Source: Patescibacteria group bacterium (GTDB taxonomy: Bacteria; Patescibacteriota; Patescibacteriia; Patescibacteriales; UBA12465). From it: DNA of 64,000 bases. Shown piece by piece: positions 1-42,807 of the stretch (position 1 is its first letter; the number at the start of each line of letters is the position of its first letter). The DNA lies in the NCBI GenBank assembly GCA_049318005.1, contig JBMOHE010000001.1, positions 117,995-181,994 on the forward strand, given 5' to 3'. The position numbers and the translations under genes were made by a program. A model generated the notes under the pieces. It ran no database searches. It was given only the letters and a program-made list of their open reading frames with translations, and had not been told where the DNA came from.

Positions 1-1227
1 GACCGGTTAAAGCTGAGTGAACAGCGATATCAGCGGTTTCGTTATCTCGAATCTCGCCAATCATTATAATATCTGGATTTTGACGAAGCAAGGCTCTTAA
101 ACCATTAGCGAAAGTGACTCCTGCTTTTGCGTTTACCTGGGTTTGATTGATACTCGCCACCTCATATTCAATTGGATCCTCAATAGTAGTTATATTAACT
201 TTAGGGGTATTTAGAATATGTAAAATAGAATAAAGGGTTGTTGTTTTACCGTGACCAGTCGGCCCAGTAACCAGAATCATACCGTGAGGTTTTTTTATTT
301 CCTCATTAATAATTAATTCCAACTCTTCGTTAATTCCTAAATCAAATAAGGATAAAGGCTTAGCTGAACTTTTTAATAAGCGCATTTCCGCTTTTTCTCC
401 GTTTAAAACTGGCATTACATTTACACGAATATCAACGCGTGTTCCCGCCTCTAAATTAAAATGAAAACGCCCGTCCTGAGGAATGCGATGCTCATCGATT
501 TGCATGCCGGCCAAAATTTTAACTCGAGCCACTAATATCTGACTAATATCACTAGGGAGAGATAAAATTTCTTGCATTACGCCGTCAACACGATACCTAA
601 CCATTAATTTTTTTGGCAATGGTTCAAAATGGATATCAGAAGCGTTCATCATGATAGCGTTTTCGAGAATACTATCTAAAATACTGACAATCGGCACTGC
701 CTCAGCAATTCTTGCCAAATCCGTTTCTCCACTTAAAGACACCGACTGCTTAATACTCTCTTCAATGATTTGATTAAAATTGGTCCCAATAGTTTTTCGG
801 TATTGTTTAAAAACAAAGTTTAAGCTCGTTGATGAGGTTAAATAAACATCAAGCCACAAATCATATTTAGCTCTAATAAAATTAATTATTTCTAAATCGA
901 GCGGATTGAGCATGGCTATCTTAGCAGTTTTAGCCGCTTGATTATATTCAAAAATAACCGCGCTATTACTCTTAACAAAAGCTTCTGGAAGTAGGCCTAG
1001 CGCTTCAGCGGGAATAATAACTTTCTTTAAGTTAATAATTGGTACGTTAAAATAAGGCGCTAAAAGTTCTAGCAAGAAATCCTCAGATATTTCTTCTCTC
1101 CCCACTAAAACATCGGCTATTTTTTGACCAGAGCGAAAAGCCTCAGCCTTAGCGTCCTCAAAGACTTTTTCAGTTATTAAATCTGAATTTAATAAAAGCT
1201 CCTTTAATTTTTCTTCTTTAATATACA
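1..1227 (-). CDS. pilB: Type IV pilus assembly / T2SS-family ATPase PilB/GspE; the C-terminus runs off the window edge at position 1.
   Basis: My own translation of the minus strand from the ATG at 1227 gives MYIKEEKLKELLLNSDLITEKVF... (GspE N-terminal domain) and ...KPHGMILVTGPTGHGKTTTLYSILHILNTPKVNITTIEDPIEYEV...NPDIIMIGEIRDNETADIAV..., i.e. Walker A and Asp/His boxes of a secretion ATPase. It is absent from the ORF track because the stop codon lies outside the window. Confidence 0.85.
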
Positions 1228-2024: not shown

Positions 2025-2723
2025 TTAGAAATCTGTACCAGTACCAAGAATAGTTAAATCAGTACCAACTTCATAATAATTTGCATTATTACCACCGTCC
2101 TTAGACATCTTATTGTCATCTGAGGTATAAGCAGTACTTTCTAAACGTGCATCGATTTCATATTTACCAGTTGATTCCATGCAAGCATAGCGATAAACAA
2201 GGTCAGTATTAACAACTCCGCCGACTGTCATAGTATTAACTGGATCGATAGGTAAATTAGAGATTGGAGAGCCACCAGGTAAACCGCTTAGGTTAACTGG
2301 CAACCAGCCGCTAGCATTAGTTAAAGCTAAGTTAGCATTAGTTGCTTGTTTGCCTCCAAAAGTAGATGTAAAGGTGGTTGCGTCTAAAACTTTATCAGTA
2401 ATAGCTGCACCTGGAGCATCGCTTGGGTAGCTATAATAAATTTGATCTTCGCCAGTCTGCCAAGTAGCAAGAGAAGCTGTTCCCTTACAGGCGACATTAG
2501 AAGCGCCAGCCATCAAAGGAGTCGTGGTGCTAGTTGAGTAAAGGCCTAACGCAGTTTTAATAGTTGCTAAATCCGACATTCTTTGTGAGTCACGTGACTT
2601 CTTTAAAGTTTCAGATGGATCTAGTACTAAGATTAAAATAACCGATAAAACAGCGATAATCGCTATTACAATTAAAAGTTCCAATAATGTAAAACCTTGA
2701 TTTTTTGTTGTTTTTTTATTCAT
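2025..2723 (-). CDS. Type IV pilin / pseudopilin with a class III (prepilin) signal peptide.
   Basis: N-terminus MNKKTTKNQGFTLLELLIVIAIIAVLSVILIL carries the canonical G^FTLxE prepilin cleavage/methylation motif followed by a hydrophobic helix. The ORF-track start at 2753 adds 10 residues; the MNKK start at 2723 is more likely. Confidence 0.8.
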   Translation of the reverse strand: MNKKTTKNQGFTLLELLIVIAIIAVLSVILILVLDPSETLKKSRDSQRMSDLATIKTALGLYSTSTTTPLMAGASNVACKGTASLATWQTGEDQIYYSYPSDAPGAAITDKVLDATTFTSTFGGKQATNANLALTNASGWLPVNLSGLPGGSPISNLPIDPVNTMTVGGVVNTDLVYRYACMESTGKYEIDARLESTAYTSDDNKMSKDGGNNANYYEVGTDLTILGTGTDF

Positions 2724-3318: not shown

Positions 3319-4008
3319 TTATTGTCCAAATAGATGACCAATATAATAACCCGCTAAAGCAGCTCCCATTCCGATCAAGACCATCTGAATCCCTGTTTTC
3401 CAAGGACTGCCAACTGTTGCCTTAGCTTTATAAATTCCCACAAACAGTAAAACAATTGCAGAAACTATCAAAGAACAGATAATCGCTGATCCAATTGGTA
3501 AAAGAAAAAATGGGGTTAAGGGAACAAAAGATCCAACTAACGCCGCAAAGCCAACCACAAAACTTCCCTGATAAATATCTTTATTCTTTATTTCAGTTAA
3601 CTCTAGCTCTTCCTTCATCATTATCTTCAACCACTGTTCATCGTTACTCGTGATTTTAGCCACGATTTCTTCTAGTAAAGCTCCGTCAAATCCCTTATCT
3701 CGATAGATTTCTCTTATTTCCTCTCTCTCTAATTCTGGCAATTCCTTAATTTCTCTTTTCTCTCTTTCTAGCTCTGAAAAATAGTGATCTCGTTCAGCCA
3801 TTTTAGAAGTTAGGGCTACCGCCGCCATCGAGATACTTTCGGCAAAAGTCGCCGCCATGCCAGCCGCAATAATTACCTTATAGCTACTAGTAGCCGCAGC
3901 GACACCTAAGATAACCCCGAGAACATTAACTAGACCATCTTGACCGCCGAGTATGATGTCAGATAGAGTTGAATTCTTCCCGACTTTAGATAATTCTTGT
4001 TTATGCAT
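3319..4008 (-). CDS. VIT1/CCC1-family (DUF125) iron/manganese transporter-like membrane protein.
   Basis: The N-terminal LGGQDGLVNVLGVILGVAAA region, a central Glu/Arg-rich cytoplasmic helix (EREKREIKELPELEREEIREIY) and C-terminal TM helices are typical of the VIT family. Confidence 0.7.
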   Translation of the reverse strand: MHKQELSKVGKNSTLSDIILGGQDGLVNVLGVILGVAAATSSYKVIIAAGMAATFAESISMAAVALTSKMAERDHYFSELEREKREIKELPELEREEIREIYRDKGFDGALLEEIVAKITSNDEQWLKIMMKEELELTEIKNKDIYQGSFVVGFAALVGSFVPLTPFFLLPIGSAIICSLIVSAIVLLFVGIYKAKATVGSPWKTGIQMVLIGMGAALAGYYIGHLFGQ

Positions 4009-4112: not shown

Positions 4113-4222
4113 AATGTTTATTAAGAGTGCAGCGAGGAATCTAGTCCTATGACCTGCCGGCAACCCCGAAATAATCCCTTCGGTAGGTGCTTCTAGCCCA
4201 ATTCGGGAAAGATAAAGGTCAA
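4113..4222 (+). promoter_or_regulatory. SAM-I (S-box) riboswitch in the metK leader.
   Basis: UUAUUAAGAG...GAGGAAUCUAGUCCUAUGACCUGCCGGCAACC...CCGAAAUAAUCCCUUCGG...GGUGC...AAAGAUAAAGG matches the S-box P1, the kink-turn GAUGA-like UAUGACC, the GGCAACC junction, P3 and the GGUGC element. It sits immediately upstream of metK. Confidence 0.7.
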
Positions 4223-4298: not shown

Positions 4299-5288
4299 AT
4301 GTTAAAAACAGCCGAAAGCGTTTCTCCGAGTCATCCTGATAAATTATGTGATCGAATTAGCGATGCTATTTTAGATTATTGTCTAAATAATGATAAAGAT
4401 AGCCGCGTAGCAATTGAAACAATGGGTGGACACGGACTTATAACTATAACTGGCGAGCTAACTACTAATGGTCAAATTGATTTAGGAGAAATTATTAAAA
4501 TCGCTAAACGTATTGGCGGAGAAAATAATGAAATTAAAATTAATATAATAGCACAGAGCCCAGAAATTTCACGCGGCGTTGATACGGGCGGCGCTGGAGA
4601 TCAAGGTATTATGGTTGGTTATGCTTGTAACGATAACGACTCATTAATTCCACAAGAAACATATTTAACACGTAGCCTTTGTAACTACATATACGAACGT
4701 CATCCTTATGACGGCAAAACCCAGGTTACTTTAAACAATGGTAAAATAAAAACAATCGTTGTTAGTTTTTGCAAATTGCCAAAAGAAGATATTTTAAAAT
4801 TTACTAAAGAGTGGTGGCAAAAATTATCAAATAAAGAAATTGATTTTGAAATACTGGCTAATCCAGCCGGTGACTGGAGTCAAGGCGGATTCGAAGCTGA
4901 TACTGGTCTAACAGGACGAAAATTAGCGATCGACAATTACGGTCCACAAATTCCAATCGGTGGCGGCGCCTTTAGTGGAAAAGATTCAAGCAAGGTTGAT
5001 AGATCGGGTGCCTATATGGCGAGAAGGATTGCGGTTGATTTATTAAAAGAAAATGATTTTAAAGAAGTTATAGTAAAAATAGCTTATGCAATTGGAAAAA
5101 AGGAACCAGTCATGACTAGCTTTGAGGCGACTAATAATAAAGATGAAAAAATCTCCGGCGAAATAGATAGCCAAAAATACGACTTAACCCCCTTGGGAAT
5201 TATTAATTTTCTAGAGTTAAAAAATCCTCAATTTGAAAAGACGGCTGAATGGGGATCATTCGGACATGGCTTTACTTGGGATAAATAA
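4299..5288 (+). CDS. metK: S-adenosylmethionine synthetase (compact, 329 aa).
   Basis: AESVSPSHPDKLCDRISDAILD (the GHPDK motif), GAGDQGIMVGYA, and GGGAFSGKDSSKVDRSGAYMAR (the P-loop-like GGGAFSGKD signature). Confidence 0.9.
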   Translation: MLKTAESVSPSHPDKLCDRISDAILDYCLNNDKDSRVAIETMGGHGLITITGELTTNGQIDLGEIIKIAKRIGGENNEIKINIIAQSPEISRGVDTGGAGDQGIMVGYACNDNDSLIPQETYLTRSLCNYIYERHPYDGKTQVTLNNGKIKTIVVSFCKLPKEDILKFTKEWWQKLSNKEIDFEILANPAGDWSQGGFEADTGLTGRKLAIDNYGPQIPIGGGAFSGKDSSKVDRSGAYMARRIAVDLLKENDFKEVIVKIAYAIGKKEPVMTSFEATNNKDEKISGEIDSQKYDLTPLGIINFLELKNPQFEKTAEWGSFGHGFTWDK

Positions 5289-29195: not shown

Positions 29196-30894
29196 AATAA
29201 TTATTATAATTTAGCAGATCGCGGCGCCCCTTAGAAAAAAAAACGAGTGAACTATCTTTGAGCTCCTTCTCCAAAAGAAGAAGCAAGGCGTCGATTGCGG
29301 GATCATTTAAATCGAGCCAATAATTATCAATAGTTATAAACTTCGGTTTTGTCTGAAGACAATGAGCAACTTGTAATAGTAAGCAACTTTTTGAATTAGT
29401 AATAAACTTATCAGCCCTTAAGCGCCAATCAGCTCTTTCAAAAAATATATCTTTCAATTCTTTATGGCTGTTAACTAAGTTTGAAATGCTTAGCAAGTCA
29501 TCGGTCTTAACTCTATCCTTTTCTTTCCCGGCCACTATTTCCAAAATACTGCGTCCACTTTTAAAGGCCGGGTCTATATAATATGAACCAGAATACGCTC
29601 TAAAAAAATCATTATAGTAAAAACGTTGCTTATCCGCTTTAATTATCCAAGCATGACGATTAAAATCACTTCGCCCGGCAAATAATTTTGCCAGTTTCGT
29701 CTTTCCGCTTAATCTATCGCCACTTATTAAATATCGAAATCCAACAATAAACTCAAATGATAAATTCTTATAATATTTAGACTTTTTATAAAGTTTTGTT
29801 TTTGAGCTTTGAAAAATTAAACTTTTAAACTTATGTTTTATTAACTTATTAAGGGGCCGTATGCCTTTAGGCGGTATGGACAAAATTAATCCGAATAGCA
29901 GCGGGACCGAATAGAGTCCAACTCGTAAACTTTCAAACAGTAAACGTGAGCAATAGATTATTAAAATTATCAATAAAAAGTTATTATCGGGACTAACGGA
30001 AAGAATTGCGCTTATCTCCTGTCTATAATAACTAATTAGCCAGCTAAAGAAAATAAATATAATAAACAAGATGCTTGATCCAAACTTCAACCATAGGTCA
30101 CGGCGAACTCTAAAATAAGAATCCAATTTTACCAAATTATTAAAATCGGACAGAGCCTGATTCTCTCGACGAAAAAATTTTGTAAACTGCCAATCTGATA
30201 ATGAAAAATCTACTAATTTAATAACTTGGGAATAAAAAGTAGTTTCTTTAATAACATATTTTTTTGCAATAAAAAAAGCGCTAATCATTACTAGAGCGCT
30301 CAATATTAAAGATAATATTAACCACCAAAGAAGCTTCGGTCCAAAAATAAAACACAGAATAATAAATATAAAAACTAGAAGAAGCCAACGGACGGAGCCG
30401 AGCAGGCAGTTTGTTAAGCCAGAAGAAAGCATCGGCAAATGGTATGATATTTTAGCAAGCAGTCTCCCCTTTTTTTCTAAATTATATTCGTCATTGGTTT
30501 GAGATAATAATGATTTAAACCAATTTTCGCGTAAATTATTAATTAAGCGAATAACGGCCGTTTTTTCTAACTTAATTGCCAGATAAGACACAACTAAATA
30601 TAAACTTGCCGCCCCTGCAATAACCAACAAGGTTACAATCAGACTTACTTTAGTAGTCGATATTGCTCCTGATTTAATATACTGATGGCTGATCAATATT
30701 AAAATTATTTCTAAAATTCCCTGCCCAAAAATAAGAGCTAAAGTAAAAAGAATTATTTTTTTTTCTTTTTTAAAAAATTTCAAAAGATAATTAATATGCT
30801 CCCGTAAAGGACGCAGGGATTGACGACTCCAGCGCTCGTCTCTCAATTCACGTAAAAATTTAATTTGTTCATCGGCCATATCCATAAATAACAT
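29185..30894 (-). CDS. ABC exporter-like fused TMD-NBD protein with a degenerate nucleotide-binding domain.
   Basis: Six TM helices with long cytoplasmic loops (type I exporter fold); Walker A ISGDRLSGKTKL is present, but the ABC signature is replaced by ITNSKSCLL and Walker B by FITIDNYW (no catalytic Glu). Overlaps the RT gene by 26 nt. Confidence 0.7.
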   Translation of the reverse strand: MLFMDMADEQIKFLRELRDERWSRQSLRPLREHINYLLKFFKKEKKIILFTLALIFGQGILEIILILISHQYIKSGAISTTKVSLIVTLLVIAGAASLYLVVSYLAIKLEKTAVIRLINNLRENWFKSLLSQTNDEYNLEKKGRLLAKISYHLPMLSSGLTNCLLGSVRWLLLVFIFIILCFIFGPKLLWWLILSLILSALVMISAFFIAKKYVIKETTFYSQVIKLVDFSLSDWQFTKFFRRENQALSDFNNLVKLDSYFRVRRDLWLKFGSSILFIIFIFFSWLISYYRQEISAILSVSPDNNFLLIILIIYCSRLLFESLRVGLYSVPLLFGLILSIPPKGIRPLNKLIKHKFKSLIFQSSKTKLYKKSKYYKNLSFEFIVGFRYLISGDRLSGKTKLAKLFAGRSDFNRHAWIIKADKQRFYYNDFFRAYSGSYYIDPAFKSGRSILEIVAGKEKDRVKTDDLLSISNLVNSHKELKDIFFERADWRLRADKFITNSKSCLLLQVAHCLQTKPKFITIDNYWLDLNDPAIDALLLLLEKELKDSSLVFFSKGRRDLLNYNNYYEI

Positions 30895-32080
30895 TTAAAA
30901 AATATTTATAAACTGAAGAGAGATGCATGTTTTTAAGCTCTGTTTCTAAAAGTCTTCTATTTTTAGGCGTATAGGTTTTAAAAAAATATCGTGTTAATAT
31001 ATGAAAAAAATTTTCCGACAAAGCTCTTATTTGCTCCCCGTCATTTACTAATTTTTTTTGTTTAGCTATTTCACGAAAATCGACTAATAGATTATTATTA
31101 CTTTGAGATAATACTGACCGCAAATAGTTCTTTTTTCTCGCTAAACTTTTAAAATTATAATAATTAAACTGAGAACTCCAACGAAGTAAAGTGTGTTTTA
31201 AAAATCCCTTGTTTAAACTTACTAGCCCCGAGTCGAAACTATAACCGAGGTAATCAAATTTTTCTGCAGCGGTAATGTATTTCGTTTTACTAGAACTAAC
31301 CATGAGCCCTAATTTTTTTGTTTCAGAAATCAAGTAGTCATAAAGAATTTTTAAACGATCCTTATTCTTATCCATAATAATTAAATCATCACCAACGCGA
31401 CGATAAAAATCAGAATTTTTTCCACAATATTTATCAAATTCGTCTAAATAAAGATTGTTAAATAAGCCGATTAGGGGGGTGCCAGTAATTAGACCAAACT
31501 TCGGATTAATAATTTCTCCATCGCGAATAGCCTTTGGAGAAACGAATAATGACAAAAGCTTTACCATGGGCTCGCTAAAACCCATGTTTTTAATTTTATT
31601 TATTAATATATCAAACTGAATATAGGAGCTATAGTCGGCCATGTCAGAGACAATTAAAGAATCTCTTTTATAATATCTTTGATAATGGCGAACCGTACTT
31701 CGACCGGCAAAATAGCTCGGGTGAGATTTTCTATAAGAAAAAAGCCAAGGCGAAAAATAATTATCAAAATATGGTTCAACTATTTGATAAACTGCTTGCG
31801 CCTTGACTCTGTCTTTAAGATTATAAATATAAATTTCCCGCATCTTCCCGGGCTTATTCTTTTTGGGAATTCTAACTAAAATAGCCGGAGAAAGCGAAGT
31901 AAAATTTATAATTTCGCTCTGAACTTCTTTTATTAATTTAGCTGAACTGATCTCTAAATCACTAAATTTTAAATTATCCCAACCAGCATATCTTCCCAGG
32001 CGATTATCGCTTTCCATCTGCTCAATCAGATTTAAATAAGCTTTCTCTATATTTTTTTTATCAATTATTTCATTAAACAT
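30869..32080 (-). CDS. Reverse transcriptase (prokaryotic retron / group-II-like / unknown-group clade), 403 aa with all seven RT motifs and a thumb-like C-terminus.
   Basis: Motif 1 ILVRIPKKNKPGKMREI; motif 2 LKDRVKAQAVYQI; A LIVSDMADYSSYIQFD; B GLITGTPLIGLFNNLYL; C YRRVGDDLIIM (YxDD-type GDD); D LKILYDYLISETKKLGL; E FDYLGYSF. Confidence 0.85.
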   Translation of the reverse strand: MFNEIIDKKNIEKAYLNLIEQMESDNRLGRYAGWDNLKFSDLEISSAKLIKEVQSEIINFTSLSPAILVRIPKKNKPGKMREIYIYNLKDRVKAQAVYQIVEPYFDNYFSPWLFSYRKSHPSYFAGRSTVRHYQRYYKRDSLIVSDMADYSSYIQFDILINKIKNMGFSEPMVKLLSLFVSPKAIRDGEIINPKFGLITGTPLIGLFNNLYLDEFDKYCGKNSDFYRRVGDDLIIMDKNKDRLKILYDYLISETKKLGLMVSSSKTKYITAAEKFDYLGYSFDSGLVSLNKGFLKHTLLRWSSQFNYYNFKSLARKKNYLRSVLSQSNNNLLVDFREIAKQKKLVNDGEQIRALSENFFHILTRYFFKTYTPKNRRLLETELKNMHLSSVYKYFLNVIYGYGR

Positions 32081-33961: not shown

Positions 33962-35425
33962 TTATTTCTCTAAAACCCCGGCGACTTTAAATATTGTTCC
34001 CTCTTCTAAGCGCGGGGCTATTAACTGTGCGCCAACTGGCATATCATTTCCTTCTCTTGTTTTAACTAGACCAATGGGAACAGACAGCGCCGGTAAACCA
34101 GCTAAAGATGCACCAGTCACGAAAATATCCTCCATGTACATAGCTAGCGGATCATTAATCTGCTCACCTATTTTAAAAGCTGAGTGAGGCGAGGTAGGAG
34201 TTAGTAATATATCAACTTTCTCAAATACTTTATTAAAATCATTAACAATTAAAGTTCTAACTGATTGAGCCTTTTTATAATAGGCGTCATAATAACCAGC
34301 ACTAAGAGCATAAGTTCCTAACATTATACGGCGCTTAACTTCTTGACCAAAACCAAGTCCACGATTTGTTTTATAAAAATCCTGAAGATCCTTCGCTTCA
34401 TTTTTTGCTAAGCCCCAACCTATACCATCAAAACGCGCTAAGTTAGAACTAATTTCAGAGGGCGTAATTATATAATAAACCGGTACTCCGTATTCAGTAT
34501 TAGGCAAAGATACTTTAACCATTTCGGCACCAAAATATTCTAATTTTTTAATAGTTTCTTCTAGGCGTAAGGATATTTCTTTATTCATTTCTTTCAAGAA
34601 ATATTCTTTTGGCAAGCCAACTTTAATCCCTTTTAAAGGATGCGGTCCGGCTACTTTTAGATTAACTGAGTTAATCTTTTCTTCATAAACTTCAACCGCT
34701 TCCGGCGAACTAGTCGCATCTAAATCATCACGACCAGCGATTACTTTTAAAACTAGGGCCGAATCATAAGCGTTTTTAGTTAAAGAGCCGATTACGTCGG
34801 TTGAGGAGGTCATAGAAAGTAAACCGAAACGCGACACGCGTCCATAGCCTGGTTTGAGGCCATAGATACCACAGAAGCTAGCTGGTTGGCGAATTGAACC
34901 ACCCGTATCAGAACCAATCGCAAAAATACACATATTAGAAACTAGCGCCGCGGCTGAACCGCCCGAAGACCCACCAGGAACTCGAGTTAAATCAAGCGGA
35001 TTCTTAGTCGCGCCATAGGCAGAATTTTCAGTTGAAGCACCATGGGCGAATTCATCCATATTAGTCTTGCCTAGTAATACTGCTCCCGCTTCTTTTAATT
35101 TTTTTATAATAGTCGCGTCATATGGTGCAATATAGTTTTCTAAAATTTTTGAAGCGGCCGTTGTTTTTATTCCTTTCGTCATTATATTGTCTTTGCAAAG
35201 ATAAGGAATACCAAGCAGGTCGCCGGTCTCTCCTGACTTGATTCTTTTATCCGCCTCTTTAGCATCAGAAACGGCCGAATCTTCACAAGCAGTTAGCACG
35301 GCGTTAATTTCTGGATTTAATTTTTTTATTTGCAAAAGACAGGCCTTAGCCAATTCTAAAGATGAGATTTCACCACTATCTAATTTTATACGCGCTTCTT
35401 TAATTGTAAGTTCATTTAAATTCAT
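33962..35425 (-). CDS. gatA: Glutamyl/aspartyl-tRNA amidotransferase subunit A.
   Basis: Amidase signature GGSSGGSAAALV and the catalytic Ser-cisSer-Lys context (KDNIMTKGIKTTAAS). Confidence 0.9.
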   Translation of the reverse strand: MNLNELTIKEARIKLDSGEISSLELAKACLLQIKKLNPEINAVLTACEDSAVSDAKEADKRIKSGETGDLLGIPYLCKDNIMTKGIKTTAASKILENYIAPYDATIIKKLKEAGAVLLGKTNMDEFAHGASTENSAYGATKNPLDLTRVPGGSSGGSAAALVSNMCIFAIGSDTGGSIRQPASFCGIYGLKPGYGRVSRFGLLSMTSSTDVIGSLTKNAYDSALVLKVIAGRDDLDATSSPEAVEVYEEKINSVNLKVAGPHPLKGIKVGLPKEYFLKEMNKEISLRLEETIKKLEYFGAEMVKVSLPNTEYGVPVYYIITPSEISSNLARFDGIGWGLAKNEAKDLQDFYKTNRGLGFGQEVKRRIMLGTYALSAGYYDAYYKKAQSVRTLIVNDFNKVFEKVDILLTPTSPHSAFKIGEQINDPLAMYMEDIFVTGASLAGLPALSVPIGLVKTREGNDMPVGAQLIAPRLEEGTIFKVAGVLEK

Positions 35426-35510
35426 ATTCTATGGTCCCCTAATTTCATTAAATATTTATTTTTTATTTAAATTATTTTTATTGCTCTTAAGTTATAATAT
35501 TTTTTGCGTG

Positions 35511-35578
35511 GGCCCAGGAGCGGTCTCCAGACCAAAATTAGCACTTGGTTCCCGGGGTTCAACTCCCCGTGGGTCCAC
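35511..35578 (+). ncRNA. tRNA-like structured RNA element E1: a miniature cloverleaf with a tRNA-Ala-type acceptor (G3•U70, A73) and a canonical T-arm.
   Basis: GGGCCCA pairs with TGGGTCC (7 bp, with G•U at pair 3-70), followed by discriminator A; T-arm CGGGG-UUCAACU-CCCCG; mini D-like hairpin GGAG-CGGU-CUCC; central hairpin CCAA-AAUUAGCAC-UUGG. It lies in the gatC-gatA spacer on the strand opposite those genes. Confidence 0.4.
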
Positions 35579-35695
35579 TAGCTTTTAAATCTTGACGATA
35601 AAAAAATATTTGTTATAATTAATGTACAAGTGCTAATTTTGGATCAGAGCCGTAACGGAACCAGAAGAATCTCCCTAATGGGGAGATTTTTTGTT

Positions 35696-35980
35696 TTACA
35701 AAACTCGCTTAACTTTTATCTGACCATTTTCAATGTCACTCTGACCTAAGGCCGCTTCAATTTCTTCTCTATTCCAATTAATAACTTCATCACTTCTTAG
35801 AACATCCGATAGCCCGCTAACTGAAGCTGTGATTTCAATATTCTTAGTATTAACTTCTTTGAGTTTTTCTACATAAGCTAAAATAGACCCAAGCTGATCG
35901 CCGAATTTTACTTCTTCTTGGGAACTTAAATCTAAACGGGCTAGTTCAGCAATATGTTTTATATCTTCTTGGCTTATCAT
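35696..35980 (-). CDS. gatC: Glutamyl/aspartyl-tRNA amidotransferase subunit C.
   Basis: 94 aa; MISQEDIKHIAELARLDLSSQEEVKFGDQLGSILAYVEKL is typical of GatC. Confidence 0.85.
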   Translation of the reverse strand: MISQEDIKHIAELARLDLSSQEEVKFGDQLGSILAYVEKLKEVNTKNIEITASVSGLSDVLRSDEVINWNREEIEAALGQSDIENGQIKVKRVL

Positions 35981-36058
35981 ACTTTTCTAATATTTATGCG
36001 GGGTTTATTTTTTATTTAAATTTTCTTTATTAGCGACCTGTTATAATAACTTTACTGT

Positions 36059-36146
36059 GGGCCCGGCTAGGTAGCGGAATCGGACTTAACAATCGATTCT
36101 CCGGAGTTCAACTCCCTGCCTGCCGGCAGGCAGGTCCGCGGGTCCA
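36059..36146 (+). ncRNA. tRNA-like structured RNA element E2, a paralog of E1 with an extra GC-rich hairpin.
   Basis: GGGCCCG pairs with CGGGTCC (G•U at pair 3-70; the A-U to G-C change at pair 7-66 is a compensatory change relative to E1), discriminator A; GGAG-UUCAACU-CUCC T-arm-like hairpin; central hairpin GAATCG-(11 nt)-CGATTC; inserted palindrome CTGCCTGCCGGCAGGCAG. Confidence 0.35.
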
Positions 36147-36257
36147 CAGGGGCTAGTTTATAATTAATATATGCTTCAATTGACTCAGGGAAAATATTTT
36201 GCTATAATTATTTTATTGTTAAGTTCGATCTCAACGCTGTCTGGTGTAGAAAATAAA

Positions 36258-36290
36258 TTCCTCCGCAAAAACGGGGGTTTTTATTTTACT
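36258..36290. terminator. Bidirectional rho-independent terminator downstream of ligA.
   Basis: CCTCCG-caaaaa-CGGGGG hairpin followed by TTTTTATTTT, with an AAAATAAATT run on the other side. Confidence 0.55.
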
Positions 36291-38433
36291 GTTTTACTAT
36301 TTTCAAAAACTCCTCTTCATCTAATATTTCAATACCCAATTTCTTAGCCTTTTCATACTTAGAACCAGGTGCTTCACCGACAACCAAGTAATCTAGATCC
36401 TTAACAACGCTATCTTTCATTTTTCCACCCAATAACTTAATTCTATCTTTAGCTTCATCGCGTGTCAAACTACTTAAACTACCGGTTAAAACAAAGGTTT
36501 TACCGGCTAATTTTAAATTTTTAGCCTCGCTAGAATTAACTTTTTTATAAGTTAAGCTTACGCCGCTTTCTATAAACTTATTTAAAAATTCAAGATTGTG
36601 CTCACTATTCCAAAATTCATAAATACTTTTTGAAACGACCGGGCCAATATCTTCTAGTTTCTCAAGTTCCTCTAAATCTAATTTTTTAAAAACAGTTATT
36701 AAATCACTAATTGAAATTGACTTAGATTTTTTTAGTAATTCAGGGCTTATTTTTTCTGCCAATAATTCAGCACTCTCTTCGCCGACATGTCTTATGCCTA
36801 ATCCATAAATAAATCTGGCTAGATCTAAAACCTTGCGCGAAGCTATCATCGCAATAACATTATCCGCTTTTTTTTCGGCAAATCTTTCTAAACTTAATAA
36901 ATCTTCTTTTTTTATTTTATATAAATCAGCTGCGTCTTTTATTAAACCCTCAGTTAAAAACTGCTCAATTAACTTAGGTCCCAAGCCTTCTAAATCAGCG
37001 GCTCCTTTAGAAACGAAATGGATTATCTGGCGTAGATTTACGGCATAACATTTTTTATTTCGGCAACGATAAGCGACTTCGTCACCGCTACGTTCAACTT
37101 TTCCGCTGCACATAGGACATTCACTAGGAGGAGAGATCTTTTTTTCTTTTCCGTTTCTTAAATTTTTTAAAACCGAAATTACTTTAGGAATAACGTCGCC
37201 TGATCTTTCAATAATTACTGTATCGCCAAGACGTAAATCAAGGCGTTCTATCTCGTCAAAGTTATGAAGAGTTGAACGACCAATAATCGCCCCGCCAACT
37301 TTTATCGGTTCTAAAATGGCAGTTGGTGTTAAGGCGCCAGTTCGCCCTACTTGCCAAACAATATCGTTAATTTTCGTTGTTGCCTGTTCCGCCGAAAACT
37401 TATACGCCATCATGTATCTCGGCGCTTTGCCAACAATCCCTAAAACATTCCACATTCTTAAATCATTTATTTTTACAACCGTCCCATCAATATCAAATGG
37501 CAAAGATTCACGTTTTTTTTCAATTTCACCATAAAAAGAAAATACTTCATCTAAATTTTTACAAATTTTATTATGGTGTAAAGTTTTTAGACCAAGTAAG
37601 CCAGCAAGTTTATCGGCTTGATCTCGTCTTGCTATAATTTCTCCGCGTTCATAAGGTTTATTTTCAACGGAATCAAATAATAATAGATCATAGGCATAAA
37701 AATCTAGCTTTCTCTCGGCAGTAATTTTTGCGTCTAGCTGACGAATAGAACCGGCAACGCCATTACGAGTATTAGCGAGTTCCGACTTTCCCAAGGATAA
37801 ATATTTTTTATTGAGCTCCGTAAAAACTTTTTTAGTCATTATTGCTTCGCCACGGATTTCAATTATTCCCTTCTTAATTAAACTAAGAATAGTTTTTATT
37901 TCAGACGCTGAAAATCCGACCGAACTTAATTCTTTTTCACTTGGAATCCTTAACTTCAAAGGAATACTATTTATCGTTCTAATATTACCAGTCACATTTT
38001 CACCAGTTTTTCCATCACCACGCGTTGCCCCCTCAACAAGTAAGCCGTCCTCATATTTTAAATTAATTGCGAGACCATCAAGTTTTAATTCGCAATAATA
38101 TTCTTCTCTTAATTTTCGCTTTAAATAATTATTATTTTTTTCTTCCCAATCAAGCATGTCGCGCTCGATAAAAGCATCGAACAAGGAAATCATCGGCTGA
38201 GAATGAATTGTTTTTTTAAATTTAGATAAAGGTTCGCCCGAGACGCGCTGAGTCGGAGAGTCTGGAGTTATTAATTCCGGAAACTCATTTTCAATTCTAA
38301 ACAATTCCATTTTTAAACTATCGAGCGCTGCGGGCGACATTGACTCCTTATCAAGTACGCTAAAATTATAGCGGTGAATATCAATTTCCGCCTTTAATTT
38401 ATCTAAACGAATTTTAGCTTCAGCTTTTTCCAT
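36286..38433 (-). CDS. ligA: NAD-dependent DNA ligase.
   Basis: Adenylation motif ELKLDG (KxDG), OB fold, Zn finger CPMCSGKVERSGDEVAYRCRNKKC, HhH and a C-terminal BRCT domain. The start is probably MEKAEAK (38433) rather than 38451. Confidence 0.9.
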   Translation of the reverse strand: MEKAEAKIRLDKLKAEIDIHRYNFSVLDKESMSPAALDSLKMELFRIENEFPELITPDSPTQRVSGEPLSKFKKTIHSQPMISLFDAFIERDMLDWEEKNNNYLKRKLREEYYCELKLDGLAINLKYEDGLLVEGATRGDGKTGENVTGNIRTINSIPLKLRIPSEKELSSVGFSASEIKTILSLIKKGIIEIRGEAIMTKKVFTELNKKYLSLGKSELANTRNGVAGSIRQLDAKITAERKLDFYAYDLLLFDSVENKPYERGEIIARRDQADKLAGLLGLKTLHHNKICKNLDEVFSFYGEIEKKRESLPFDIDGTVVKINDLRMWNVLGIVGKAPRYMMAYKFSAEQATTKINDIVWQVGRTGALTPTAILEPIKVGGAIIGRSTLHNFDEIERLDLRLGDTVIIERSGDVIPKVISVLKNLRNGKEKKISPPSECPMCSGKVERSGDEVAYRCRNKKCYAVNLRQIIHFVSKGAADLEGLGPKLIEQFLTEGLIKDAADLYKIKKEDLLSLERFAEKKADNVIAMIASRKVLDLARFIYGLGIRHVGEESAELLAEKISPELLKKSKSISISDLITVFKKLDLEELEKLEDIGPVVSKSIYEFWNSEHNLEFLNKFIESGVSLTYKKVNSSEAKNLKLAGKTFVLTGSLSSLTRDEAKDRIKLLGGKMKDSVVKDLDYLVVGEAPGSKYEKAKKLGIEILDEEEFLKIVKQ

Positions 38434-38493
38434 AAGCATATTATAACACAAAAGCCCTGCTTTTGGCAGGGCTTTTTACGTATTTTTTAAATT

Positions 38494-39051: not shown

Positions 39052-42000
39052 TTATTTTCTACGTTCTAAAATTTTAATTCTGGCTTCAAGATTATTTATT
39101 TCTTTCTGCTGAGCCTTAACTGCCTCAACTAAAGGAGCAACTAAGTTTCCGTATTGAACAGATTTTATCCCATTAGCCTCAGTTACTAATTCAGGGAAAA
39201 CAGTTTCAACTTCTTGAGCGATTAAACCAACGCTCGCCTTATTATCCGCTTTCCAGTTAAAGGTAACGCCACGTAAATTTAAAATTTTATTAAGCGGATT
39301 TTTAATTGTTTCAATATTTTTCTTTAAGCTACGATCAGAAGTATAAGTAAACGCAGTTGCGCCAACCTCTCCAGCGACCGTTAATTTATATCCTGGAGTA
39401 GTGGTTCCGATTCCGACGTCACCGCCATTAGGATTAATTAATGTATTCTTCCACGCTATTCCATCGTCAATTGATTGAATCATTCCGGCATCAGCCGTAG
39501 TCAAATACCCCAGAGAGATTGATTTAGTATTATCGGCCGAATCGGCGACCGATAAGATCTTTGACATTGCTGGCGTCTCAACATTATTAGAACCAACAAC
39601 TGTCAATGGTTTATCGGGGTTCGTTGTCCCAATTCCAATTCTACCAGAGGAGTTAATTCTCAAACGTTCAAGACCATTCGTATATAAAGCGGTTATACCA
39701 TGAGTAAATGTCCCGGCATTTTTATTTATTTGTCCGATAGCAAGGACGCCAGCAGCGGCACCGGCCATCCCTGGCGTGTAGCCAATCGCAACCTGTTTAT
39801 CCCAGTCATAAGAAGTTCCTAAAAATATCTGACTAGTCCCTGTTGGATTAAATAACCATAAACCAGCCGTTCCACTATCTGAATATATTTTTGAGGCATT
39901 AGCGCCAGCAAATTTCAATCCACCACTACTGTTAACTGGAGTTATATTAACGTCGCCATTAATATCTAACTTCGATGTTGGGTTAGTAACACCAACTCCT
40001 AAATTCTTATTTATGATTACTTTACCGCTGTTTAAATCCGAATAAAAATATCCTCCGCCATAATAAGCTCTATTATTTTGACGGTCCATAACGGCTATAG
40101 TGTAGCCATTATTATCATCATAAATACCAACCTCATCATCACTGTAATTGTTATTATTACCAATAAATAATCCAGCGCCCGTTGAATTAGTATTAGCTCC
40201 GATTACTGAACTACCATATATATAGGTATTTCCCCAGGCGTCAATTCTCATTCTATTTGTTATAGTTCCGCCAGTGCTTGTCGTCCTAAAGTTAAGAGAT
40301 GCATTATTATCAGCTCCTGAATCAAAATATACTTGACCCTGATAATCAGTCGCTGAATTGTTATACAGTTGAAAACCAGCTCCGGAAGGAGTGCCTGTTA
40401 GGGCGGCCGTAGAAGCATAAATTCTTATTGCCTTAGCATTAACGCTACCTAAATTAATATCAACTGGTTGAGCAGCTCCTGTGCCACTTGTATCTAGTTT
40501 AATCCCATCATATGTACCTGCATTATTTTTAATATGTAAAGGTGCTAAAGGATTCGTCGTTCCAATGCCGACTTTACCAGCAGCCGATATTCTCATTTTT
40601 TCCGTACTGCCATCAGCAACTCCGTATCCATAAGAATTTCTTGTCCAAAATGATAAATCGCCATCAGGATACCCAGTGCTAGGATTCCAGGTTGACGATC
40701 TAGAGGAGACTATTTTTCCTGCTGTTGAGTTTGCTGTGTCAATAAAGTTTATTTGACCTATTGTATTATTACTTAAAGCTGTATGAGCGGTGTTGGTGTC
40801 CTGCATTTTAAATACAGGGGAAGCCCCCGATGAAGATCCGCTTACATGTAGTGCTGAACCAGGATTAGTCGTCCCAATGCCGACATTGCCCGTGAATCTA
40901 TCGGCATAAAACATTGGATCACCTCCAACTGATGCATATGGCAACATCTGAATTTTATTTTCATCAACTGTGAAAAATTCCATCGGATTATTATCAAAGA
41001 CACTCAAGCTTCCGGAGCCATCACCTCCACCCAGAGTGAGCATAGAGCTCGGTTCATTTCCAGCTCCTAATCCAAGCCCGAGGTATCCTAACGATGAAAT
41101 TTTAACCTTTTCTTGATTATTAATATTCCAAGAGTAATGAGCGCCACTAGGAATCATGAAATCAAATTGAGTAGGCGAGACTCCTAGGCCATAAACATCA
41201 ACACCAGATTCATATAATTTTAACTTAGCATTTCCGCTAGCTACATTACTATAAGTTCCACCTAATGACATATTTTTAGGGGTTGTGGTTGCGCTAGATG
41301 TTAAAGTTCCTATCTGTAAGTTTGACAAAGGATTAGTCGTTCCAATTCCAACGTTTCCTCCGCCAGAAGTTCCATTCCAAATATTTCCATTTGGAGTTCC
41401 TCCCCAAAGAGAATTACTAGCTACGGTGCTTGTTGAAGTATAATTATTTTTTAGATAAGCAAGTGAGACTGCTTGATCATCATTAACTTGAGTATAATCA
41501 AGTCCACCAATTTGACCGCCACCAACATTAATCGCGTCGCCAGAAGATGGCTTAGAAACACTTAATTTAATACTAGGATTTGTTATCCCGATTCCGACAT
41601 TTCCATCACCTTTAACAATAAAAGCGCTTCCACTGTTAGAATTTTGAACGTTTAAAATATTTGACGAAGGAGTTACTGCTCCGCCTTTTATTAACATGCC
41701 CCATGCTTGAGCGCCGGAATAACTTTGGTTGTCAAACGTAAAAGCATATTGATTGCTAGGATTAGAGACGTTTTGAGCTAATACAACGTGCAATTTTCCA
41801 ACGGGCGCGACTGTTCCAATTCCAACGGATCCCGATGATTGCAAAATCATATTATCCGAACTGGACTTATAAATATAGTTAGTACTATTATCTCCTAAAT
41901 CAATCGCTCCACCTAAAGCCAAAACCTTGGTTATACCAGAAATTGGAGTATTTAGAGTACTACCGATAAATACCAGCCCATTGCCATTTCCAGCGAATCC

Positions 42001-42744
42001 AACATAGCCACTACTACCTCTGAATATCCCAGTACCCGTTTCCCCAGAAAATGTATAAGATGGAGCTGCCGCAGAACCAACAGGAACAGCGACTTGCCCA
42101 CTTCCTAATACTAATTTACTGCCTGGATTAGTTGTACCAATTCCGATGTTACCACCTCTTAAAATAGTTAACCAATCGCCAGCACCCCAAAAGCGAAGAC
42201 TATTGTCAGCGCTGTTATTATACATGCCCCAGTGATTGTTAGTTCCAGCAACACCTTGAATATCCAATTCAGCATTACCACTAGTTTTATATAAGTGTAG
42301 TAATGAGTTTGGATTAGTTATCCCGACGCCGACGTTACCACCACTAATAATTCTCATCCATTCCGTCGTGCCATTATTACTGCTGAAAATAGTTGCGTCG
42401 CCCGTTCCACTCTGAAGGACTAATTGGTTAGAAGCGTTTAATAGTATTTCTCCATCTTCAACTAAATTATTAGAATTTCTCCAAGTTAAGCTACTGCTAT
42501 TACTTAGACCAATACTTCCACCTAACACTTGAAATTTAGTTGAAGGCGTCGTTGTTCCAATTCCAACTGGATTATTATAATAAATTGAGCTGCCGTTGGT
42601 CGTCCATTGACTCCACTGGCTGTTCTCCCCTGTTGGCGAAGTAATATAAGCCGCCTTCGTAAAAGGGACCTTACTTGTCGCCGCAAAGACAAAGAGAAGA
42701 AGTAGAAATATAATTCCCCTCAAATTTATTATTTTTGATTTCAT
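39052..42744 (-). CDS. Secreted giant fibre-like protein (about 1230 aa) with tail-fibre-type 'GNVGIGTTNP' repeats and a C-terminal peptidase-S74 intramolecular chaperone (auto-cleaving) domain.
   Basis: Signal peptide MKSKIINLRGIIFLLLLFVFAA; more than 10 repeats of ..GN(V/I)GIGTTNP..KL.V; C-terminus TSDRSLKKNIETIKNPLNKILNLRGVTFNWKADNKASVGLIAQEVETVFPELV...VQYGNLVAPLVEAVKAQQKEINNLEARIKILE matches the endosialidase/tail-fibre chaperone domain, including the S-D-x-R-x-K cleavage motif. Confidence 0.8.
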   Translation of the reverse strand: MKSKIINLRGIIFLLLLFVFAATSKVPFTKAAYITSPTGENSQWSQWTTNGSSIYYNNPVGIGTTTPSTKFQVLGGSIGLSNSSSLTWRNSNNLVEDGEILLNASNQLVLQSGTGDATIFSSNNGTTEWMRIISGGNVGVGITNPNSLLHLYKTSGNAELDIQGVAGTNNHWGMYNNSADNSLRFWGAGDWLTILRGGNIGIGTTNPGSKLVLGSGQVAVPVGSAAAPSYTFSGETGTGIFRGSSGYVGFAGNGNGLVFIGSTLNTPISGITKVLALGGAIDLGDNSTNYIYKSSSDNMILQSSGSVGIGTVAPVGKLHVVLAQNVSNPSNQYAFTFDNQSYSGAQAWGMLIKGGAVTPSSNILNVQNSNSGSAFIVKGDGNVGIGITNPSIKLSVSKPSSGDAINVGGGQIGGLDYTQVNDDQAVSLAYLKNNYTSTSTVASNSLWGGTPNGNIWNGTSGGGNVGIGTTNPLSNLQIGTLTSSATTTPKNMSLGGTYSNVASGNAKLKLYESGVDVYGLGVSPTQFDFMIPSGAHYSWNINNQEKVKISSLGYLGLGLGAGNEPSSMLTLGGGDGSGSLSVFDNNPMEFFTVDENKIQMLPYASVGGDPMFYADRFTGNVGIGTTNPGSALHVSGSSSGASPVFKMQDTNTAHTALSNNTIGQINFIDTANSTAGKIVSSRSSTWNPSTGYPDGDLSFWTRNSYGYGVADGSTEKMRISAAGKVGIGTTNPLAPLHIKNNAGTYDGIKLDTSGTGAAQPVDINLGSVNAKAIRIYASTAALTGTPSGAGFQLYNNSATDYQGQVYFDSGADNNASLNFRTTSTGGTITNRMRIDAWGNTYIYGSSVIGANTNSTGAGLFIGNNNNYSDDEVGIYDDNNGYTIAVMDRQNNRAYYGGGYFYSDLNSGKVIINKNLGVGVTNPTSKLDINGDVNITPVNSSGGLKFAGANASKIYSDSGTAGLWLFNPTGTSQIFLGTSYDWDKQVAIGYTPGMAGAAAGVLAIGQINKNAGTFTHGITALYTNGLERLRINSSGRIGIGTTNPDKPLTVVGSNNVETPAMSKILSVADSADNTKSISLGYLTTADAGMIQSIDDGIAWKNTLINPNGGDVGIGTTTPGYKLTVAGEVGATAFTYTSDRSLKKNIETIKNPLNKILNLRGVTFNWKADNKASVGLIAQEVETVFPELVTEANGIKSVQYGNLVAPLVEAVKAQQKEINNLEARIKILERRK

Positions 42745-42807
42745 AATATTAACTCTACGAATTATTTCGCAAAAATTACCCAAGCACTAAACTAAATTTA
42801 TCAAAAT

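Follow-up and report, generated by a model that had tools for sequence, protein, structure and literature searches.

The C4 RNA of phages P1 and P7 (Rfam RF01695) and the CI RNA of satellite phage P4 are small, structured, phage-borne RNAs of ~70–77 nt in which a loop pairs with a target just downstream on the same strand, and changes in loop and target are matched. The specificities of the heteroimmune phages P1 and P7 covary in this way. C4 and CI are substrates of RNase P (PMC5499578), and are of the hairpin type with no equivalent of a T loop (PMC5499578). Toxin-antitoxin systems of types I to VIII are catalogued in TADB 3.0 (PMC10767807), and CreT is a toxic small RNA (PMC10097628). In the type VIII and type I systems SdsR/RyeA, CreTA and hok/sok, two RNA genes are adjacent, the stronger promoter serves the presumed antagonist, a single-stranded 5' tail recognises an exposed loop, and the pairs occur in multiple orthogonal copies, patchily distributed and also found on mobile elements. 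The tRNA-like non-coding RNAs, comprising the tRNA-like domain of tmRNA, the Y RNA YrlA, mascRNA and viral tRNA-like structures, are built on an acceptor/T-arm stack with a mimic of the D/T-loop elbow and are missed by tRNA scanners. The subject of this report is two elements, E1 and E2, in a 64,000-nt stretch of a Patescibacteria group bacterium (assembly GCA_049318005.1, contig JBMOHE010000001.1, positions 117,995 to 181,994 of the forward strand; hereafter the window), each a tRNA-Ala-like RNA (E) with a predicted gene for a complementary RNA (the partner) downstream of it on the same strand. Together, E and partner make up an apparently undescribed, widespread RNA family of Patescibacteria (the candidate phyla radiation, CPR) and some phages; no match was obtained among Rfam 15 families, and full-text literature searches on tRNA-like RNAs and tmRNA in Patescibacteria and on small RNAs in Saccharibacteria gave no description.

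The two modules occupy the gatA–gatC and gatC–ligA spacers on the plus strand, opposite to gatA (33962–35425, minus strand), gatC (35696–35980, minus strand) and ligA (36286–38451, minus strand). E1 (35508–35578, plus strand) reads GU-GGGCCCA...UGGGUCC-A-C, with G1 at 35510 and A73 at 35577; E2 (36057–36147, plus strand) has the same architecture, with G1 at 36059 and A73 at 36146. An earlier note, made from the letters of this DNA, had proposed two homologous, structured plus-strand elements here, and the sequence, RNAfold and a family covariance model bear this out; both sites had been placed correctly, apart from a start of E1 that was off by one nucleotide. E1 and E2 have in common the 5' end GUGGGCCC, the segment GGRGUUCAACUCC and the 3' end GGGUCCAC, and the ends form a 9-bp closing stem, GUGGGCCC(A/G)...(U/C)GGGUCCAC, in which pair 7-66 is A-U in E1 and G-C in E2, as the note had read it. 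Within this stem RNAfold places a 3–4-bp hairpin with a 4-nt loop (NGGU), a 6–7-bp hairpin with a 9- or 11-nt loop and a T-arm-like hairpin. For E1 these are the closing stem at 35508–35516/35570–35578 (G3•U70 at 35512/35574), hairpin 1 at 35517–35528 (loop CGGU), hairpin 2 at 35530–35550 (loop AAUUAGCAC, 35536–35544) and the T arm at 35553–35569 (loop UUCAACU), all on the plus strand; for E2 the hairpin-2 loop lies at 36083–36093 (GACUUAACAAU) and G3•U70 at 36061/36143. The predicted folding energies are -32.1 kcal/mol for E1 (z -2.55) and -43.9 kcal/mol for E2 (z -3.71; equalled by 0 of 200 shuffles), and the minus strand folds less well in both cases, as it does in 22 of 22 family members (p 5e-7). 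In the 64-kb window the T-arm motif is present only at the E1 and E2 sites, and neither motif scans nor the unfiltered family covariance model gave further E copies there.

E1 scored 67.5 bits with the family covariance model and E2, the lowest-scoring copy, 53.7 bits, because the window copy of E2 has an A•C mismatch in the T stem (in the tRNA register) and carries a 20-nt insertion. The insertion is the perfect palindrome CCTGCCTGCCGGCAGGCAGG (36115–36134, plus strand) between the T arm and the 3' acceptor strand, which the earlier note had pointed out; it is specific to this lineage and absent from the orthologous E2 of two relatives (L150 and L152). An exact copy of the palindrome was seen inside an insertion of a Saccharibacteria 16S rRNA gene (L052, 4733–4752) and a near-copy in the T-loop region of an outer tRNA-Ala half (L073), and structured RNA genes of CPR may be subject to invasion by a small GC-rich hairpin element, of which CCTGCCTGCCGGCAGGCAGG would be an example. 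Upstream of E1 is an AT-rich block common to the modules (35440–35498, plus strand; kept in L150 and L152) that ends in a -10 box, TATAAT (35493–35498), 9 nt ahead of GUGGG. The block is shared with E2 as direct repeat D3, GTTATAAT preceding both elements at a fixed distance of 9 nt, and E2 has an extended -10 box, TGtTATAAT (36039–36047, plus strand), at the same 9-nt distance from GUGGG.

The decisive feature, overlooked in the earlier note, is a predicted gene for a cognate antisense RNA beside every copy. At 48–67 nt 3' of each E, on the same strand, is a unit composed of a sigma-70-type promoter, a complementary RNA and an intrinsic terminator; promoters and terminators in this and all other modules were predicted from sequence as consensus matches. 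Partner 1 has the promoter TTGACG, a 16-nt spacer and a TG-extended TATAAT (35592–35619, plus strand; 11 of 12 consensus positions), followed by a predicted RNA of ~70 nt (35626–35696, plus strand; inverted repeats I3/I14, terminator scan) with an intrinsic terminator at 35665–35691 and a U tract. Its 5' seed, CAAGTGCTAATTTTGG (35627–35642), begins 7 nt after the promoter and is complementary at 16 of 16 positions to E1 35532–35547, that is, to the 5' strand of hairpin 2, the loop and the first nucleotides of the 3' strand. The seed is unpaired in the partner's own RNAfold structure, and the calculated energy of the duplex with E1 is -36.5 kcal/mol. Partner 2 has the promoter TTGACT, a 17-nt spacer and a TG-extended TATAAT (36180–36208, plus strand; likewise 11 of 12), a predicted RNA at 36214–36287 (plus strand; inverted repeats I4/I5) and a terminator at 36260–36277 followed by a U tract; its seed, ATTGTTAAGTTCGAT (36215–36229), complements E2 36079–36093 at 14 of 15 positions, the single exception being a G•U pair on the plus strand. 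The loops of E1 and E2 differ in sequence, and each partner carries the matching changes. No further target of either seed was found in the window or in the phage locus.

For a wider survey, one genome per species was scanned with the pattern GTGGGCCC..GTTCRANTCC..GGGTCCAC, which matched at least 120 loci. About 100 of the matches listed were ordinary tRNA-Ala genes of 74–78 nt, and the ends of E are therefore tRNA-Ala ends; the link to tRNA-Ala that the earlier note had suspected is thereby upheld, the same acceptor and T arm being present in genuine tRNA-Ala genes. A further 18 of the matches listed were E-like, 70–73 nt long and all in metagenome-assembled genomes of Patescibacteria type (Falkow-, Magasanik-, Davies- and Saccharibacteria and Paceibacterota), among which L048 and L063 were counted although deposited as 'uncultured Gammaproteobacteria'. 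Two modules stand more than 280 kb apart on one complete 977-kb chromosome (CP066698.1). Scans of viral sequences found modules in two phage types (L142 and L147/L148), and phage L147 encodes a terminase, an HNH protein, an integrase and a methyltransferase. The covariance model added six copies in gat loci of relatives, which are therefore not forced by the search pattern. In all, 28 modules were collected, with at least five CPR lineages and two phage contigs represented. With the exception of the window E2 given above, family members scored at least 59 bits and true tRNA-Ala 36–50 bits. Among cultured phages there were no homologues, only tRNA noise, and the viral contigs, a tiny sample, held no members lacking G3•U70. 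An all-against-all BLAST of the flanking open reading frames (ORFs) gave local synteny only, and no conserved protein neighbour.

Two other kinds of small RNA unit were seen on the phage contigs. Just downstream of the L147 module is a second short promoter–terminator unit (3715–3830, minus strand; TTGCAA-17-TATTAT, hairpin CCAACCA...TGGTTGG, U tract), which precedes the first late-region ORF and is possibly another small RNA or a leader. On mostly GC-rich phage contigs (L001 11346–11398, minus strand; L003 1217–1293, plus strand; L143, L145 and L149) there are other truncated tRNA-Ala-like RNAs whose acceptor is likewise GGGCCCG/CGGGUCCA. They include a single hairpin of 53 nt and a form that resembles the tRNA-like domain of tmRNA (GGGGUCGAC...GGACG-T arm-CCA) without a message domain; the others are 67–69 nt long with a normal D arm and a shortened anticodon arm. 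None of them has a downstream complement.

The pairing of E with its partner is general and specific. In nearly every module the longest complement to the interior of E lies 43–75 nt downstream. Cognate duplexes average -39.5 kcal/mol against -21.5 kcal/mol for non-cognate combinations, and in 19 of 20 modules no other partner pairs with E as well as its own does, which also holds in the opposite direction. Beyond a small internal loop the duplex usually takes in hairpin 1 as well, which makes the partner antisense to nucleotides ~10–40 of E over 25–30 bp. These duplexes contain 63 G•U pairs but only 8 A/C mismatches, and the plus-strand duplex is more stable than its minus-strand version (p 0.0014). 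This G•U bias, with the greater plus-strand stability of both duplex and fold, argues that complementarity is kept up between RNAs, and on the plus strand, which the earlier note had held to be the functional one.

Unit anatomy is equally regular. Over the 28 modules the -10 box of E matches the consensus at 5 of 6 positions at a median of 9 nt upstream. The partner promoter matches at a median of 11 of 12 positions, is TG-extended in 85% and has the same position and quality in 26 of 28; in these 26 the partner measures ~70 nt and the seed begins a median of 7 nt past the -10 box, which puts the seed at the 5' end of the partner RNA. The scaffold (acceptor, T arm and both promoters) is conserved, while identity falls to 46% in E hairpins 1 and 2 and 41% in the partner body. 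Predicted partner folds have a free seed, a constitutive terminator and no alternative antiterminator. No conserved ORF that could encode a toxic peptide was seen in E or partner.

The E fold itself is strongly supported by compensatory change: 12 of 23 pairs show double changes in 20 sequences, and 92.8% of alignment cells are paired, compared with 81.7% in column shuffles (0 of 500 reached the observed value) and 34–57% in slid controls. G3•U70 is present in 27 of 27 aligned copies and in 28 of 28 by motif check, and is retained where its neighbours vary (4-69 is G-C in L152 5700–5778, 6-67 is U•G in L151, and 7-66 is A-U in some copies), as the earlier note's reading of the window copies would lead one to expect. 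All 28 copies carry the alanyl-tRNA synthetase (AlaRS) identity set, G3•U70 with A73 and G1-C72/G2-C71. E also has the 7-bp acceptor, 5-bp T stem and 7-nt T loop (UUCRANY) of a tRNA, with the one A•C pair in the T stem of the window E2. A standard anticodon arm, D arm and variable loop are lacking: across the family hairpin 2 has 6–8 bp with a 9–11-nt loop, hairpin 1 has 3–4 bp with a 4-nt loop, and there are no linkers. The prediction that tRNA scanners would miss the elements proved correct, in that ARAGORN called only a tRNA-Ser in the window and Rfam RF00005 had no match at E<=10 over 35300–36400. At the gathering threshold Rfam found only a SAM riboswitch and the tRNA-Ser in the whole window, both away from E; relaxed searches of the locus, which the earlier note had called for, assigned it to no known family and returned sub-threshold noise (mascRNA, 20 bits; a T-arm fragment of tmRNA, 11.1 bits against a gathering threshold of 47).

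Descent of the E RNAs from tRNA-Ala is supported by these comparisons. Genuine Patescibacteria tRNA-Ala has the same acceptor, GGGCCC(R)/(Y)GGGUCC-A, and a T loop that matches the consensus, and some CPR tRNA-Ala genes also have GU...AC flanks and a leader–trailer helix like those of E, which other tRNAs do not have; this points to common descent and perhaps shared processing. E differs from genuine tRNA-Ala in its length (67–69 nt against 74–78 nt), in its 3–4-bp D stem with a 4-nt loop, in the absence of the 8-9, 26 and variable-loop linkers, and in a 6–8-bp arm with a 9–11-nt loop that has no alanine anticodon. Genuine tRNA-Ala genes had no downstream antisense complement, the longest being 6–8 nt, the level of chance. 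Hairpins 1 and 2 of E stack to ~11 bp, comparable to the D/anticodon stack of tRNA, the junction is essentially linker-free, and the hairpin-1 loop always presents GG to the UUCRA T loop, for which reasons E is plausibly modelled as an L-shaped tRNA mimic. In 16 of 28 copies the hairpin-2 loop reads U-[UAA 6/UAG 5/UGA 5/UGG 0]-CA, with a central triplet like a stop codon and a likeness also to the -35 hexamer TTGACA; common descent may lie behind the motif. Reading the loop as an anticodon was considered in three registers and gave no consistent identity.

An unusual arrangement was noticed at L041 (~800–1060, plus strand), also at L042, L077 and L102 and probably at L060 and L073, where a genuine CPR tRNA-Ala(UGC) gene is apparently nested within another tRNA-Ala(UGC). 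The outer 5' half (...CCTCATTTG) and outer 3' half (CAATGAGG...GGTCCACCA, CCA encoded) are separated by an insertion of ~170–200 nt in the anticodon loop, in which a complete inner tRNA-Ala sits at the tip of a 13-bp leader–trailer helix, TCCCGA...TCGATA-N-GT[tRNA]AC-N-TATCGGGA. The insertion had no match to an Rfam intron family, and the helix is absent from the other tRNAs of those loci; a type of tRNA intron or insertion not described before could be involved.

By analogy, C4/CI and the RNA-only toxin-antitoxin systems come closest in logic to the module, which belongs to none of the named families and is a combination of antisense control with tRNA mimicry. E shares with C4 and CI its size, its position ahead of a complementary target on the same strand, the matched changes of loop and target and its occurrence on phages, but it is a tRNA-Ala-derived cloverleaf with a T loop, a GG-bearing D-like loop and G3•U70; the targets of C4 and CI lie in the mRNA leaders of antirepressor or replication genes, whereas that of E is a separately promoted and terminated ~70-nt RNA (as predicted), non-coding, and RF01695 had no match at E<=10 on the locus. 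Adjacent RNA genes with specific complementarity, as in type VIII systems, are present here, with toxin and antitoxin roles putative. The module is not of type I, since it has no toxin ORF; its genes do not overlap in cis as those of SdsR/RyeA do, and unlike CreTA it has neither CRISPR repeats nor dependence on Cascade. As in tmRNA, G3•U70 gives E an alanine identity, but none of the tRNA-like non-coding RNAs has a dedicated antisense partner gene, and E has no mRNA-like domain, no Ro-binding stem and is not the 3'-end processing module of a longer RNA.

The module is probably best understood as a self-contained two-RNA unit on the plus strand, a tRNA-Ala-derived E with a dedicated antisense antagonist, most likely of an addiction or immunity type and not a regulator of gatC, gatA or ligA. 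In this scheme the extended -10 promoter 9 nt upstream would yield a ~70-nt RNA descended from tRNA-Ala that keeps the alanine acceptor stem, the T arm and a GG-bearing miniature D hairpin, the anticodon arm having been exchanged for a longer hairpin with an exposed loop. The near-consensus promoter downstream would yield a terminated small RNA of ~70 nt, whose single-stranded 5' end matches the loop and 5' strand of E hairpin 2 and which often has a second block complementary to hairpin 1. The free 5' tail of the partner would nucleate on the exposed loop, in the classical antisense geometry, and the helix would spread through hairpins 2 and 1 (E nucleotides ~10–40, 25–30 bp), destroying the elbow and the 'anticodon' arm. 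Full pairing must distort E, because 8 nt are too few to reach back to the T arm across a 30-bp helix, and a fully paired E would retain at most an acceptor/T minihelix. The duplex is a plausible substrate for RNase III. Docking, unfolding and a duplex of this kind would make the partner a dedicated antagonist; E is taken as the effector, with the partner as an antagonist of its own, because the E core is nearly invariant and the partner body is free to vary.

E presumably engages the tRNA machinery, that is, processing enzymes, the CCA-adding enzyme, AlaRS and possibly the ribosome. That it meets AlaRS is suggested by conservation of the full alanine identity set, and we regard the question as evenly balanced. 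For the biological role, an addiction or immunity-type RNA pair is favoured by orthogonal paralogues, patchy insertion, carriage on phages, the lack of another target and the stronger promoter of the antagonist, and is held with a confidence somewhat short of even. A more specific version, in which E would be matured like a tRNA, CCA-tailed, charged with alanine through G3•U70 and act as a toxin or immunity effector on the ribosome, EF-Tu or AlaRS, with the partner as an antitoxin that masks and unfolds the anticodon-like and D-like arms, is fairly doubtful.

Several observations weigh against this interpretation. Transcription of both genes is deduced from matches to promoter and terminator consensus sequences, toxicity of E and cleavage by RNase III are conjectured, and most members were recovered with a pattern that forces the alanine acceptor, six having come from the covariance model. 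Deep conservation in small CPR genomes could equally reflect a housekeeping role. Nucleotides -1/-2 pair with 73/74, with a further 2–6 bp beyond, and CCA is not encoded in most copies, so a free 3' end that can be aminoacylated requires processing. E has no terminator of its own, and transcripts from its promoter must therefore read into the partner unit, by which a single long RNA with a hairpin formed in cis is possible. At L061 (~2380–2400, plus strand) an ORF with a lipoprotein signal (MKKNVLLTTLVISSLIFAGC...) starts 24 nt past the partner terminator; this gap leaves no room for a promoter, so that the partner RNA may have an additional part there as a leader or attenuator.

The last of these points is also part of the case for an arrangement like C4/CI with the roles reversed, in which E would be the regulator and the partner a leader whose read-through into flanking DNA matters, reaching late genes in the phage and running antisense into the convergent gene in chromosomes. 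The layout is alike, with a structured RNA and a complementary target downstream on the same strand, the covarying specificity recalls P1 and P7, and the module of phage L147 lies between a methyltransferase gene and the HNH–terminase late genes on the same strand. This is nevertheless unlikely: the partner seed is free, the terminator constitutive and an antiterminator absent, most chromosomal modules face convergent genes from which they are insulated by a terminator, some downstream genes have a promoter of their own (L027), and Rfam gives no C4 match.

The earlier note had suggested antisense regulation of the amidotransferase genes, and a broader form of this idea holds that the modules are local cis regulators, or punctuation, of the ligA–gatC–gatA operon, acting through bidirectional terminators, outward promoters or antisense transcription. 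The locus ligA|gatC|gatA|dsbA-like was compared in relatives. Modules, always antisense to the genes, are present in the ligA–gatC and gatC–gatA spacers of the window and of L150 (whose gatC–gatA slot holds another subfamily), in three positions in L152 (the third after gatA), in the third slot only in L151 and in ligA–gatC only in L098; 2–3 modules at one locus are mutually orthogonal. None is present in L153–L155 (spacers 4–53 nt). Up to three modules in adjacent spacers of one operon in the window lineage, the conserved AT-rich block between E and the start of the upstream gene, and a symmetric terminator of the E2 type would suit such punctuation. It is quite unlikely, however, as the family is found in unrelated settings that have no neighbour in common, and also in phages, module-free relatives keep the operon with spacers of 1–53 nt, and relatives with 59–61% GatC identity lack the family at the gat locus; the tRNA fold and the covarying complementarity of E and partner are also left unexplained. 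The presence and absence of modules thus argue that they are not needed for gat expression and are subject to turnover. Filled and empty spacers amount to insertion polymorphism between related genomes, as for miniature inverted-repeat transposable elements; terminal inverted repeats and target-site duplications were not evident in the filled-site alignment, the empty-site relatives being too diverged for junctions.

If E, spacer and partner formed one long RNA able to fold either like a tRNA or into a long hairpin, in the manner of a riboswitch or a processing element, the missing terminator of E would be accounted for and the complementarity could act in cis. Separate synthesis of the partner is argued for by the TG-extended promoter (11 of 12 positions) that stands in the spacer of 26 of 28 modules, 7 nt ahead of the seed, a placement otherwise hard to explain, and a single switching RNA is accordingly judged highly improbable.

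An invertible promoter (inverton), with the inverted repeats as recombination sites and the promoter flipping towards gatA or gatC, has been largely refuted. The formal layout of repeat, promoter and repeat is as it should be, but the 63:8 bias towards plus-strand G•U and the strand asymmetry are not, the E fold spans the left repeat and covaries, and repeat sequences differ within one genome with no linked recombinase gene. Three same-strain contigs are identical to the window in this region and have the same orientation. A search of metagenomes for the flipped arrangement, for which the same collection supplied no positive control, had 15 matches, all of them tandem tRNA genes, and 0 flipped modules. 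A two-piece tmRNA-like rescue RNA, with E as the alanine-accepting domain and the partner as a message paired to its loop, is barely credible to the same degree: G3•U70 and the T arm resemble the tRNA-like domain of tmRNA and the polarity of the partner relative to the loop is mRNA-like, but inspection of the partners by eye showed no conserved frame or stop for a tag, the duplex of 13–30 bp is not codon-sized, the Rfam tmRNA match (11 bits) covers the T arm only, and several orthogonal copies per genome would be unexpected. Decaying tRNA-Ala pseudogenes or tRNA ends duplicated by an integrase, both raised in the earlier note, would account for an acceptor and T arm identical to those of genuine tRNA-Ala, but are refuted by compensatory changes in all variable helices in place of decay, by the presence of both halves with a conserved promoter and dedicated partner in each copy, by a family that spans CPR classes and by scores apart from those of true tRNA-Ala.

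Other features of the window were recorded in passing. Upstream of ligA is a run of giant ORFs (1243–2123 aa; 39052–42783, minus strand, and neighbours up to 58664) that keeps this position in L150, L152, L153 and L155 and, a C-terminal Peptidase_S74 (endosialidase chaperone) domain aside, matches no family. A 403-aa ORF for a stand-alone reverse transcriptase (30869–32080, minus strand; RVT_1 1e-15; group-II-intron-RT-like 8e-31, below the family cutoff; weak Drt2 match) sits between an ABC-transporter-like gene and tRNA-Ser/NUDIX genes; a link to the E modules was considered and rejected, there being no reverse transcriptase near other modules. The SAM riboswitch is of type SAM-I (4115–4218, plus strand; 52 bits, above the gathering threshold) and lies upstream of an ORF at 4299–5288.

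Patescibacteria represent a large share of bacterial diversity, and their non-coding RNAs are almost unexplored. In the module, mimicry of a tRNA with alanine identity meets antisense recognition that is orthogonal and evolves fast, two subjects usually studied apart, and the modules offer a ready set of orthogonal RNA–RNA pairs and a marker of intergenic turnover in CPR genomes. If E is a regulator, it would be a rare candidate regulatory RNA in minimal genomes. If it proved to be charged or toxic, it would be the first RNA toxin of tRNA origin to be paired with an RNA antitoxin, and on the toxin reading a tRNA would have been turned into a toxin, placed under a private antisense guard and spread through CPR genomes and their phages.

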